A stretch of 64,000 nucleotides of DNA from Escherichia phage WPEC4. Positions within the stretch are counted from its first letter, which is position 1. Every line of letters begins with the position of its first letter. The position numbers were made by a program, and so were the translations under genes. The stretch lies in sequence record PV682947.1; one strand, given 5' to 3'. This document shows, one piece after another, positions 26,609-27,089 of this stretch. The notes beneath the pieces are model-generated. The model saw only the letters and a program-made list of their open reading frames with translations, was not told the DNA's origin and did not search any database.

Positions 26609-26860
26609 TCTAGCCTCCTAAACGCGTCTCTGACGCACTTTTTATATATAAGATGATAAATCACCTTACCTAGTAAGTGAACTTGCTCTACGAGCCTCTT
26701 ATGAAGCTTATGTTATAGGATATACTATTGCTACCTGTTTAAGCAAGGTTTTTGCACACAGAAAATAATTTTTAATAAAACTCTTGACTTTTGTGTTCGA
26801 AGTATGCTACCCTAGAAATCTATTAACGAGCGCAGCGAGTTAAGGTTTTAGGTTGTTGAT

Positions 26861-26896
26861 GTAGTACTCTGTACTCAAGTACTGTACTCTGTACTA
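26861..26896. repeat. direct repeat TACTCTGTACT x2 within GTAC cluster
   Basis: gtaGTACtctGTACtcaaGTACtGTACtctGTACtag read directly. Confidence 0.6.
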
Positions 26897-27029
26897 GATT
26901 AATAATTATTAAATATTAATAATAAATAATTATTAGATCTAACAAACAGGTACAGTGTATCAGAACTGGTACGTACAGATCAACTTCTATCAATTAAAAA
27001 TAAAATAATAAATTATTATAAATAATACT

Positions 27030-27043
27030 TGATCTATAGATCA
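27030..27043. repeat. perfect 14-bp palindrome TGATCTATAGATCA
   Basis: Read directly from sequence. Confidence 0.6.
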
Positions 27044-27089
27044 GTATGAAGTACAGTACGGAACATCTCAACAAGAATGGAGGTGTGCA

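Follow-up and report, generated by a model that had tools for sequence, protein, structure and literature searches.

The primary replication origin of phage T7 consists of the promoters phi1.1A and 1.1B followed by an AT-rich region, and oriF and oriG of T4 combine a middle promoter with a downstream unwinding element. The pL and pR transcript leaders of lambdoid phages carry nut sites, in which boxA is accompanied by a boxB hairpin with a 5-bp stem and a GNRA-like pentaloop. For T4-type phages, Arbiol, Comeau and Krisch reportedly described in 2010 promoter-early stem-loop cassettes (PeSL). In rV5, from a related large coliphage group, the spacer at the junction of genes 10 and 11 separates leftward and rightward early blocks and carries bidirectional host-type promoters, some with an extended -10, whose prediction relied on the consensus alone (Kropinski et al. 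2013, PMC3606486).

A spacer of the same layout lies in Escherichia phage WPEC4 (record PV682947.1), of which we analysed a stretch of 64,000 nucleotides, called the window below. Positions 26609-27089 form a gene-free stretch of 481 bp between a leftward gene (26285..26608) and a rightward gene (27090..27275). The first-pass annotation had described it as a non-coding separation of leftward and rightward blocks, which holds, and curated relatives have zero genes annotated within it. The genome is that of a phAPEC8-like E. coli phage, a Phapecoctavirus (Stephanstirmvirinae). Few E. coli phages are isolated for therapy more often than those of this type; the present analysis gives likely early promoter positions for them. 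A literature search returned no transcription start sites or transcriptome for Stephanstirmvirinae, and nothing on the spacer motifs or a replication origin in this subfamily. The likeness to rV5 drawn here is one of layout. The rV5 description has no GTAC cluster, no A/T-only tracts and no TACCCT/hairpin module.

With a probability of roughly 0.6, we read the spacer as a divergent early-transcription control region with two tandem rightward promoters, P1 and P2, and a lineage-specific segment of GTAC repeats and A/T-only DNA (AT block 1) between them. Its features are collected in Table 1. Every sequence feature that the first-pass annotation had listed was found where it had placed it.

Table 1. 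Features of the spacer and its borders, in window coordinates; promoters are putative
Feature	Position	Strand	Details
Leftward leader with best candidate leftward promoter	26609..26690	-	-10 TATCAT 26658-26653; -35 TTCACT 26681-26676
Leftward RBS GGAGG	26614-26618 (reverse complement)	-	
Leftward leader hairpin	26624-26636	-	GCGTC-TCT-GACGC
Conserved block ATCACCTTACCT	26660-26671	-	kept in six phages including muut
Promoter P1	26784..26813	+	-35 TTGACT 26784-26789; 15-nt segment; extended -10 TGC 26805-26807; -10 TACCCT 26808-26813
P1 transcript leader hairpin	26819..26847	+	core box CGAGCGCAGCGAG 26827-26839, then GGTTTTAGG
GTAC cluster 1, left arm of quasi-palindrome	26851..26897	.	GTAC at 26864, 26871, 26879, 26884, 26891
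AT block 1, 38-nt A/T-only, internally palindromic	26898..26935	.	includes TTAATAATTATTAA at 26899-26912
GTAC cluster 2	26936..26990	+	GTAC at 26950, 26969, 26973; GATC at 26936, 26978
P2' (P2-like -10 TACAGT)	26951-26956	+	inside GTAC cluster 2; no recognisable -35
AT block 2, 36-nt A/T-only	26992..27027	+	candidate UP element, curved DNA or unwinding element; adjoins P2 -35
Promoter P2	27029..27057	+	-35 TTGATC 27029-27034; 17-nt spacer; -10 TACAGT 27052-27057
RBS GGAGG and start codon, first rightward gene	27079-27083; 27090-27092	+	61-aa protein, PHROG 26411 (function unknown)

Three blocks of the spacer are invariant across five lineages, and they are the only ones: the core of P1 (TTGAC, TG and TACCCTA), the box of the hairpin behind it and the -35 of P2. 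The regulatory hub that had been suggested for the divergent junction finds its counterpart here, in two rightward sigma-70-type promoters whose position is conserved across the five lineages; the FKP3 spacer has the same layout as the present one. The -35 of P1 matches the consensus at 5/6 positions and its -10 at 3/6, with TGC-TACCCT forming an extended -10 at an 18-bp spacing. P1 belongs to the phage's early-promoter family TTGACW-N15-TGn-TAnnnT, and each genome in four lineages has three loci with a module of its format, of which 14 near-identical copies were collected. Consensus and conservation together suggest that P1 is active.

P2 lies 25 bp upstream of the RBS of the first rightward gene. 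Its consensus match (8/12) is below the scan threshold, its -35 is invariant in eight isolates, and its equivalents by position read TTGACT-N17/18-TAGAGT in phiWec179, phiWec188 and muut and TTGACC-N17-TACACT in FKP3. The sequence GTACAGTAC (27051-27059) overlaps the -10. Natural variants improve the TACAGT hexamers as -10 elements, giving TACAAT at P2 in KKP 3954 and TATAGT at P2' in anhysbys. The geometry of P2', an AT tract followed by TAGATC-N11-TACAGT, parallels that of P2, and any promoter activity there is speculative. The incomplete consensus matches of P2 and of the P1 -10 count against the assignment, and both promoters would need the help of upstream A/T, a strong -35 or an extended -10. 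Rightward initiation by the host sigma-70 RNA polymerase most likely takes place at both promoters in tandem, from which the small early genes and the downstream array of ten tRNAs would be transcribed.

The perfect 14-bp palindrome TGATCTATAGATCA that had been pointed out with its GATC sites is present at 27030-27043 (GATC at 27031 and 27039), overlapping the -35 and spacer of P2. The invariant P2 -35 makes up its left half, and four of the eight isolates (phAPEC8, KKP 3954, UP17 and nieznany) have mutations in the right half; we regard it as incidental.

AT blocks 1 and 2 are the longest and second-longest AT-only runs in the 161-kb genome, and the AT-only palindrome noticed on first reading sits within the former. 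Both of the two least stable 40-bp windows (z ~5) fall in the spacer, AT block 1 being the least stable 40-bp duplex (z = 5.3), and so does the least stable 200-bp window (z = 4.7-5.1), in the 64-kb window and the 161-kb genome alike. The two blocks are 72% identical over 39 nt. AT block 1 is not present as such in phiWec179, muut and FKP3. In each of the five lineages, phiWec179, phiWec188, muut and FKP3 included, an AT-rich tract of 28-49 nt stands directly 5' of the P2 -35; in the window it ends one base before the -35, where an UP element (about -40 to -60) would lie. This tract probably serves P2 as an UP-element-like or curved upstream activator; against this, A/T-only runs of 36-38 nt exceed the length that an UP element needs.

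The hairpin behind P1 begins 13-16 nt past the -10 in all copies, of which each genome has three. Its core box reads C / GA / GC / loop / GC / GA / G (motif CGAGCG(N)AGCGAG), and TTAAC (26823-26827) faces GTTAA (26839-26843) as an outer stem. In the first ~35 nt of a P1 transcript, this outer stem would be followed inwards by an internal loop of tandem G.A/A.G, then by two G-C pairs and a loop of 3-4 nt. Summed over the 12 distinct copies tested, the folding energy is -102.7 kcal/mol against -62.2 +/- 7.1 for shuffled sequences (0/1000). The pairing covaries, with 84.7% of cells paired against 74.8% in shuffled alignments (0/500) and 28-42% in slid controls, and a covariance model of the hairpin matches only downstream of TACCCT promoters. 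From the IMG/VR pattern scans we used Stephanstirmvirinae contigs only; most of the matches were GC-rich chance hits, at about the expected count. An Rfam search of 26000-28100 gave no match to the hairpin, only a truncated tRNA and chance snoRNA matches (E > 3). A smaller hairpin between the P1 -10 and the box is not significant (P = 0.06), the supported structure being the one that encloses the box. Readings of the box as boxA-like or RfaH ops-like, judged by eye, were dropped, as neither is conserved in muut.

The module resembles the PeSL cassettes in being repeated, in placing a stem-loop right behind an early sigma-70 promoter, and in having several copies per genome. It differs in that the copies are only three, at fixed loci and conserved across genera, with an invariant hairpin core containing tandem G.A, and with no sign of recombination or gene shuffling. 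With nut sites it shares a small conserved hairpin in an early leader, a divergent control region, a few copies per genome and long downstream stretches in which untranslated RNA genes occur. Unlike nut, the core is C-GA-GC-loop(3-4)-GC-GA-G, the 14 copies have no conserved boxA, and no N homologue was identified here. We tentatively propose that TACCCT promoter and GA-hairpin leader form an undescribed cis-regulatory RNA module of Stephanstirmvirinae, read by a trans-acting factor that would control the fate of early transcripts. One possible role is nut-like processive antitermination, by which RNA polymerase would traverse the 2 kb of untranslated tRNA genes downstream of P1; alternatively, the 5' end might be protected or processed. 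A candidate partner is a conserved 98-aa protein encoded at 30201-30497, for which the first-pass annotation had proposed an AT-hook. The AT-hook-like motif is indeed there (MPKLKRGRGRPT), and the N-terminus KLKRGRGRP is as similar to an arginine-rich RNA-binding motif as to an AT-hook. The promoter-plus-hairpin module offers a concrete experimental target for early transcript control in phAPEC8-like phages.

A conspicuous feature of the spacer is its cluster of the tetranucleotide GTAC. The window has 55 GTAC where base composition predicts 226 and a second-order Markov model 198, a depletion of about four-fold, and WPEC1, a 161-kb relative, has 148 against 569 expected. Ten of the 55 fall within ~200 bp of the spacer (scan-corrected Poisson P ~2e-13), and the densest 200-bp window of WPEC1 is again the spacer with ten, the runner-up having three. 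The dense group seen on first reading is real, with five sites within 31 bp (cluster 1) and the direct repeat GTACTCTGTACT at 26864-26875 and 26884-26895; two of the five further sites, at 27051 and 27056, lie beyond cluster 2. CTGTAC occurs at 26869, 26882 and 26889 and GTACAG at 26950, 26973 and 27051, an inverted arrangement around AT block 1, and the two clusters are inverted copies of one another (local alignment score 24 versus 12.8 +/- 2.3 shuffled, 1/500).

The first-pass annotation had likened these repeats to iterons of replication origins and to operator clusters, a reading that our results do not support. As in iteron origins (lambda ori, P1 oriR and those of theta plasmids), short repeats stand beside an A/T-rich tract that could serve as unwinding element, with several GATC nearby. 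Iterons are at least three phased direct repeats of ~17-22 bp; here the sole exact direct repeat is 12 nt, present twice, and the GTAC units are 5-8 bp long, unphased, irregularly spaced at 4-8 bp and not conserved among relatives, with no adjacent initiator gene. The four GATC in 105 bp of spacer, against about one per 236 bp genome-wide, are an enrichment within chance; three of the spacer GATC sites are positionally conserved with phiWec179. The segment with GTAC repeats and AT block 1 was found in the phAPEC8 clade only. The repeats are absent from phiWec179, PsgM04F, muut and FKP3, and these sister clades keep the flanking genes; cluster 2 can be partly aligned with phiWec179, including its ...GATCAAC end. 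Among close relatives the GTAC positions are the most variable columns of the spacer (11/40 variable, versus 13/266 elsewhere; P = 3.6e-5). Cluster 1 shows substitution hotspots and slippage indels, and repeat indels of the spacer were seen in dw-ec, anhysbys, UP17 and nieznany. Within the clade the segment is retained in more than 60 isolates, whose kinship is too close for conservation to inform. We dropped within-clade conservation as a sign of constraint, the 98% spacer identity of EcG1 being at background; the divergence of EcG1 is limited to one mosaic gene (80% identity).

In the genome of KKP 3954, GTAC is the least retained of 254 tetranucleotides (33% versus 82 +/- 8%), and its spacer has kept three of ten GTAC and lost seven, against seven of 20 kept elsewhere (Fisher P = 1). 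One of its six GTACAG is kept and a compensatory pattern is absent, yet it is a propagated phage; the sites are dispensable. The loss rate in the spacer equals that of the genome-wide purge, and the GTAC sites do not behave as iterons or operators. A tolerant protein might still bind the KKP 3954 variants GTAT and ATAC. We conclude that the cluster is real, lineage-specific and dispensable, and that it probably does not consist of sequence-specific binding sites required by the phage; it is unfit as a landmark for an origin or an operator. KKP 3954 is also a clean natural case of a lineage erasing one restriction-type tetranucleotide genome-wide, and such erasure helps to match therapeutic phages to hosts with restriction systems.

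One rival explanation makes the repeats an operator array, at which a regulator of the phAPEC8 clade would bind GTACAG/CTGTAC half-sites (three to the left of AT block 1, three of opposite orientation to the right, including one on the P2 -10) and repress or switch early rightward transcription. We think this very unlikely. The extreme local enrichment of an otherwise avoided tetranucleotide, the inverted arrangement of the two hexamers and the overlap of one GTACAG with the P2 -10 speak for it. KKP 3954 loses its sites at the genome-wide rate and without compensation, the sister clades have the flanking genes and no sites, the unit spacing is irregular and the neighbouring proteins have no recognisable DNA-binding domain. 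A Pfam search of the neighbouring ORFs gave no domains, and their PHROG matches are of unknown function. The suggested methyltransferase at 42255, whose target GTAC or GATC might have been, gave no Pfam match and only a weak partial PHROG match.

Alternatively, the quasi-palindrome could act in the long P1 leader as an RNA element, an extended hairpin that would be processed by RNase III or would attenuate translation or transcription of the first rightward gene. The 278-nt leader from P1 to the ATG does fold better than shuffled sequences (z = -3.6), and its main hairpin has AT block 1 at the centre. Short sub-folds do not reach significance (z = -1.2 to -1.4), the self-complementarity follows trivially from TAATAA/TTATTA and GTAC units, the arms are not kept in KKP 3954, where compensatory changes are absent, and the segment is missing in sister clades, which makes this reading very unlikely. 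A large perfect palindrome or cruciform was also rejected: a gapless scan was unexceptional (35/70 matches versus a window maximum of 36/70), and the arms are not kept in KKP 3954 and are missing in phiWec179.

We instead favour viewing 26851-26990 as a lineage-specific quasi-palindrome of ~140 bp that is prone to slippage. It most likely arose by duplication of the module upstream of P2 (AT tract, TAGATC and GTACAGT -10 region), and an inverted duplication of a GTAC-bearing unit of ~30 nt around the AT palindrome would have given the arms. At most it may contribute one more tract of curved or easily unwound DNA, along with some additional weak -10-like elements. The duplication model accounts for the GTAC count; against it, it does not account for a GTAC-avoiding genome keeping the segment across so many isolates.

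A replication origin had also been suggested for the spacer. In its most specific form, transcripts from P1 or P2' would enter the A/T-only tracts and an R-loop would prime leading-strand synthesis by a T7-like replisome, an added function compatible with the promoter reading. The resemblance to the T7 and T4 origins lies in a promoter with an exceptionally A/T-rich, easily unwound tract within ~100 bp downstream of it (the A/T-only tracts begin 85 and 179 bp downstream of P1), and, for T7, in a T7-like primase-helicase and family-A polymerase; WPEC1 is annotated with a primase/helicase and a family-A DNA polymerase. The spacer is the most easily melted DNA of the genome, the order of promoter first and A/T tract second is conserved in all lineages, and the spacer as single-stranded DNA folds well above shuffles (z = -4.9). 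In contrast to the T7 and T4 origins, the promoters are of host sigma-70 type in a phage without its own RNA polymerase, and the A/T tract that is conserved keeps a fixed place next to the P2 -35, that of an upstream element, as expected for part of a promoter. AT block 1 and the quasi-palindrome are missing in sister clades (the phiWec179 fold has z = -1.3), and the other two P1-type modules of each genome have no A/T tract. Conserved iterons are absent, no neighbouring gene has an initiator-like domain, and the spacer has one relaxed DnaA box, the window total being at chance (9 observed, 10.8 expected). In the proposed GC-skew check the cumulative minimum is located at the spacer, and the skew changes exactly where gene orientation does. 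Because transcription direction confounds the skew, which in rV5 followed it at every switch (PMC3606486), the minimum is ambiguous as an origin sign. Nothing specific supports an origin at the spacer, and we consider it doubtful.

The spacer might instead mark a genome end, as a terminase cut or terminal repeat boundary. The nieznany record starts and ends inside the spacer with ~200 bp of overlap, and a 55-bp repeat_region of the anhysbys record begins at the same position to within 1 nt. A 70-bp deletion distinguishes the two nieznany copies, as is typical where assembly breaks at a repeat. The true 329-bp direct terminal repeat of Schickermooser is ~54 kb from its spacer copy (PMC6563267), and the 148-bp terminal repeat of phiWec179 also lies elsewhere (PMC12695924); we give a terminus or pac site here hardly any weight and rejected it. 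A '155-bp dispersed repeat' family was likewise rejected, the junction segments being mutually unrelated and representing duplications at mis-joined blocks in the WPEC1 record.

On the leftward side the candidate promoter has a 9/12 match in the consensus scan and is not confidently placed. The arms of the leader hairpin read GCTC/GAGC in muut, and the leader fold alone is not significant (z = -1.5). Leftward transcription probably begins near 26650, with this hairpin in its own leader.

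The window derives from a phAPEC8-like Escherichia phage (genus Phapecoctavirus, subfamily Stephanstirmvirinae), and across 25500-28500 it has 100% identity to WPEC1, WPEC2 and WPEC6 and 99% to ESCO13, Mt1B1_P17 and others. The spacer between its leftward and rightward gene blocks had been annotated as non-coding from the sequence alone, and curated records bear this out, with no gene annotated there. The phiWec179 clade (phiWec179 and PsgM04F; record segments L002/L003, 2897-3109) has an additional 70-aa leftward gene within the spacer; it lies between P1 and the leftward leader, a stretch that in the phAPEC8 clade is ~90 bp long and non-coding. 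Records of Campylobacter phage B15, Acinetobacter phage ABPW7 and Dompiswa phage TSP7_1 are 99% identical to the window in 25500-28500, many Erwinia phage records match the same region at 95-99%, and Pseudomonas phage PsgM04F groups with phiWec179. All resemble E. coli Stephanstirmvirinae phages here, so their host labels should be treated cautiously.

Features of the spacer and its flanks, with the copies of the promoter-hairpin module (window coordinates unless a WPEC1 record segment is named)
Feature	Position	Strand	Remark
Leftward block of small genes, first gene	26285..26608	-	left of spacer 26609-27089
P1, candidate sigma-70-type promoter	26784-26813	+	-35 TTGAC and TG-TACCCTA invariant in subfamily comparison
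Box CGAGCG-N-AGCGAG	26827-26839	+	invariant, just 3' of P1
GTAC cluster 1	26851-26897
A/T block 1	26898-26935		38 nt, A/T only
GTAC cluster 2	26936-26990
A/T block 2	26992-27027		36 nt, A/T only
P2, candidate sigma-70-type promoter	-35 TTGATC 27029-27034, N17, TACAGT 27052-27057	+	adjoins first rightward gene
Rightward block			right of spacer; three small genes, then ten tRNA genes at 28068-29993
Module copy, window	26784-26847
Module copy, WPEC1 segment L044	~9268-9331
Module copy, WPEC1 segment L045	~45644-45580	-

The GTAC repeats, AT palindromes and 14-bp palindrome of the first-pass annotation are all present where it placed them, and the GTAC and A/T anomalies are confirmed as real, not chance. 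GTAC is strongly avoided in the 64-kb window (55 sites, where base composition predicts 226 and a Markov model 198), but ten of these sites lie within 26864-27059 (scan-corrected Poisson P ~2e-13). The 161-kb WPEC1 record has 148 GTAC versus 569 expected, and its densest 200-bp window, in the spacer, holds 10, the runner-up 3. A/T blocks 1 and 2 are the two longest A/T-only runs of that genome and its least stable duplex (z ~5 in 40-bp windows, 4.7-5.1 in 200-bp windows). A gapless palindrome scan found the spacer unremarkable, and its GATC enrichment is within chance. The GATC positions 26936, 26978 and 27039 are kept between the phAPEC8 and phiWec179 clades (phiWec179 L002 ~3310-3430) despite ~55% surrounding identity, and TAGATC follows the P2 -35 in three lineages; these positions possibly reflect Dam- or SeqA-sensitive promoter control, although GATC density itself is within chance.

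We compared the spacer with those of phiWec179 and PsgM04F (78-85% identity in flanking genes), phiWec188, Justusliebigvirus muut and Klebsiella phage FKP3. Invariant blocks are few: the P1 elements, the box, the P2 -35 and the RBS. P1 fits the phage's early-promoter family AATAAAACTn-TTGACW-N15-TGn-TAnnnT (members at 27829, 28416, 29386 and 30151), and sister lineages have TTGACT-N17/18-TAGAGT or TTGACC-N17-TACACT for P2, whose -35 is abutted in every lineage compared by an A/T-rich tract of 28-49 nt. The comparative evidence thus supports a regulatory hub at the divergent junction, as first proposed. P2's -35 and spacer share sequence with the 14-bp palindrome TGATCTATAGATCA. Eight close isolates agree throughout the palindrome's left half, but phAPEC8, KKP 3954, UP17 and nieznany carry mutations in the right half, so the palindromy is incidental.

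The GTAC segment does not share this conservation. No counterpart of 26851-26990 (cluster 1, A/T block 1 and cluster 2) was found in phiWec179, PsgM04F, phiWec188 or muut, and FKP3 has just a short GTACAGAGTATCA in common with it. The segment has the appearance of a duplicated P2-upstream module combined with an inverted duplication about an A/T palindrome, because cluster 2 matches cluster 1 significantly in inverted orientation (~30-nt unit; score 24 versus 12.8 +/- 2.3 shuffled, 1/500), the A/T blocks are similar, and the geometry 3' of block 1 (AT tract-TAGATC-N11-TACAGT) mirrors P2; such events would have multiplied GTAC. It is also unstable: 14 nt have been deleted between GTACT repeats in dw-ec, a 9-nt stretch is duplicated in anhysbys and UP17, and nieznany lacks 70 bp (window ~26955-27020) from one spacer copy. 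Variation among the eight isolates affects 11 of the 40 positions in GTAC sites but 13 of the 266 others (P = 3.6e-5).

The reading of the repeats as iterons or operators is unsupported, given this clade-specificity and hypervariability and, decisively, their fate in KKP 3954, of which we compared positions 50001-100000 (OR067838.1; segment L059) with window 23030-30576 and 45731-64000. KKP 3954 keeps 3 of the 10 spacer GTAC sites and 7 of 20 orthologous sites outside (Fisher P = 1), where 83% retention is expected at its 95.4% identity. GTAC ranks last in retention among the 254 tetranucleotides represented by 15 or more aligned sites (10/30, 33%, versus a mean of 82 +/- 8%); in 17 of the 20 lost sites the C has become T, on one or the other strand, and the 50-kb segment has 26 GTAC versus 179 expected. 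This lineage has purged GTAC genome-wide and the spacer was not spared. Since spacer sites were lost at the genome-wide rate, and no compensatory changes for any hairpin were found among the spacer substitutions, the GTAC units do not act like iterons or operators that the phage requires. The purge suggests recent selection by a GTAC-specific restriction system, the reading we favour, or else deamination at methylated sites; this phage group is reported to stand out for its sensitivity to restriction-modification systems (PMC8594841). The 4-fold avoidance of GTAC argues against its protection by the phage's own methylation, and GATC is not avoided (ratio 1.2). The methyltransferase proposed at 42255 (ORF 42255..43049) keeps a weak, partial match to a methyltransferase PHROG but has no Pfam domain. 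The flagged repeats amount to an ordinary addition, duplication-derived and confined to one lineage, to a divergent early-promoter region.

What merits further attention is the conserved module formed by the TACCCT promoter and its GA-hairpin. WPEC1 has two further sites of the P1 format, spaced identically, at 9288(+) and 95623(-), and three full-length IMG/VR contigs of Stephanstirmvirinae carry three copies apiece, giving three per genome in four lineages of the subfamily. The consensus of 14 copies is TTGACT-TTT...A-rich-TGC-TACCCT-AA-(11-14 nt)-CGAGCG(N1-2)AGCGAG. The box is predicted to fold into a mini-hairpin (closing C-G pair, tandem G.A/A.G internal loop, two G-C pairs, 3-4-nt loop), extended by an outer stem whose sequence varies from copy to copy. 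Folding energy summed over 12 distinct copies is -102.7 kcal/mol versus -62.2 +/- 7.1 shuffled (0/1000). In a box-anchored alignment 84.7% of cells are paired, versus 74.8% shuffled (0/500) and 28-42% with slid partners. One outer pair alternates C-G/A-U (7 versus 5 sequences) and a second is unbroken over four pair types; kinship of orthologous copies inflates such statistics, but three paralogous loci in four lineages still supply real diversity. Covariance-model matches are confined to positions downstream of TACCCT promoters, with one in the window (26819-26847). The hairpin has no Rfam match, and a search of the phage literature did not turn up the motifs. Lying in early leaders, 5' of an extended untranslated tRNA array, the hairpin may govern elongation or 5'-end stability.

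A replication origin, as an additional function of the spacer, is unlikely. The strongest argument for the origin first proposed is the layout: an exceptionally easily melted A/T tract comes after a promoter, which recalls T4 oriF/oriG and the T7 primary origin, and the phage encodes both a family-A polymerase and a T7-like primase-helicase. Against this, the conserved tract is locked to the P2 -35, A/T block 1 and the quasi-palindrome are restricted to one lineage, phiWec179 shows no unusual fold, and A/T tracts are missing from the two other P1-type modules. DnaA boxes occur at chance frequency, and neither conserved iterons nor an initiator-like neighbour gene was found. A GC-skew minimum does lie at ~27 kb, but it coincides with the gene-orientation switch, a confound also reported for rV5 (PMC3606486). 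The origin reading is unsupported.

Whole-genome skew would be unreliable on block-shuffled assemblies, which one or more of the WPEC-type records, possibly including the window's source, appear to be. The window is collinear with WPEC1 in blocks only (junctions near 7407-7411, 16673-16693, 19513-19517, 29586-29588 and 30576-30579), and collinearity with KKP 3954 breaks at 30576. WPEC1 has ~155-bp duplications at each junction and a tRNA array interrupted by structural genes; the duplications were rejected as a repeat family, the junction segments being mutually unrelated. Genome ends in the spacer were suggested by nieznany (NC_052659.1; L049/L050), whose record starts and ends inside it with ~200 bp overlap, and by anhysbys (L048 1230-1284), with a 55-bp repeat_region annotated at the same place. 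They were rejected because terminal repeats lie elsewhere: the Schickermooser record is bounded by a genuine 329-bp direct repeat, ~54 kb from its spacer copy (PMC6563267), and phiWec179 has a 148-bp repeat away from the spacer (PMC12695924). Both record features are artefacts of assembly or annotation, produced where the sequence is repeat-rich and A/T-only, or possibly population heterogeneity.

The AT-hook-like motif noticed in ORF 30201..30497 is present: this 98-aa protein (PHROG 3330) starts MPKLKRGRGRPT, a canonical AT-hook core or arginine-rich motif, and is otherwise acidic and helical, making it a candidate binder of the A/T blocks or, through its arginine-rich end, of the hairpin RNA. 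Its gene has its own promoter-like site at 30151, and muut has a gene in a similar place after the tRNA array. Another promoter-like site (TTGACT-17-TAAACT with TGC) lies in 27272-27352 inside a predicted long stem, in which ATATCCTTCG (27283-27292) pairs with CGAAGGATAT (27340-27349) and which would sequester the Shine-Dalgarno AAGGA; muut keeps the stem with other bases (CTTCGTG/CACGAAG). The annotated start at 27313 is probably wrong, because a conserved CxxC-containing ORF begins at the ATG equivalent to ~27349. Justusliebigvirus and Klebsiella phages conserve the 27272-27352 block at 72-78%, although the upstream genes differ.
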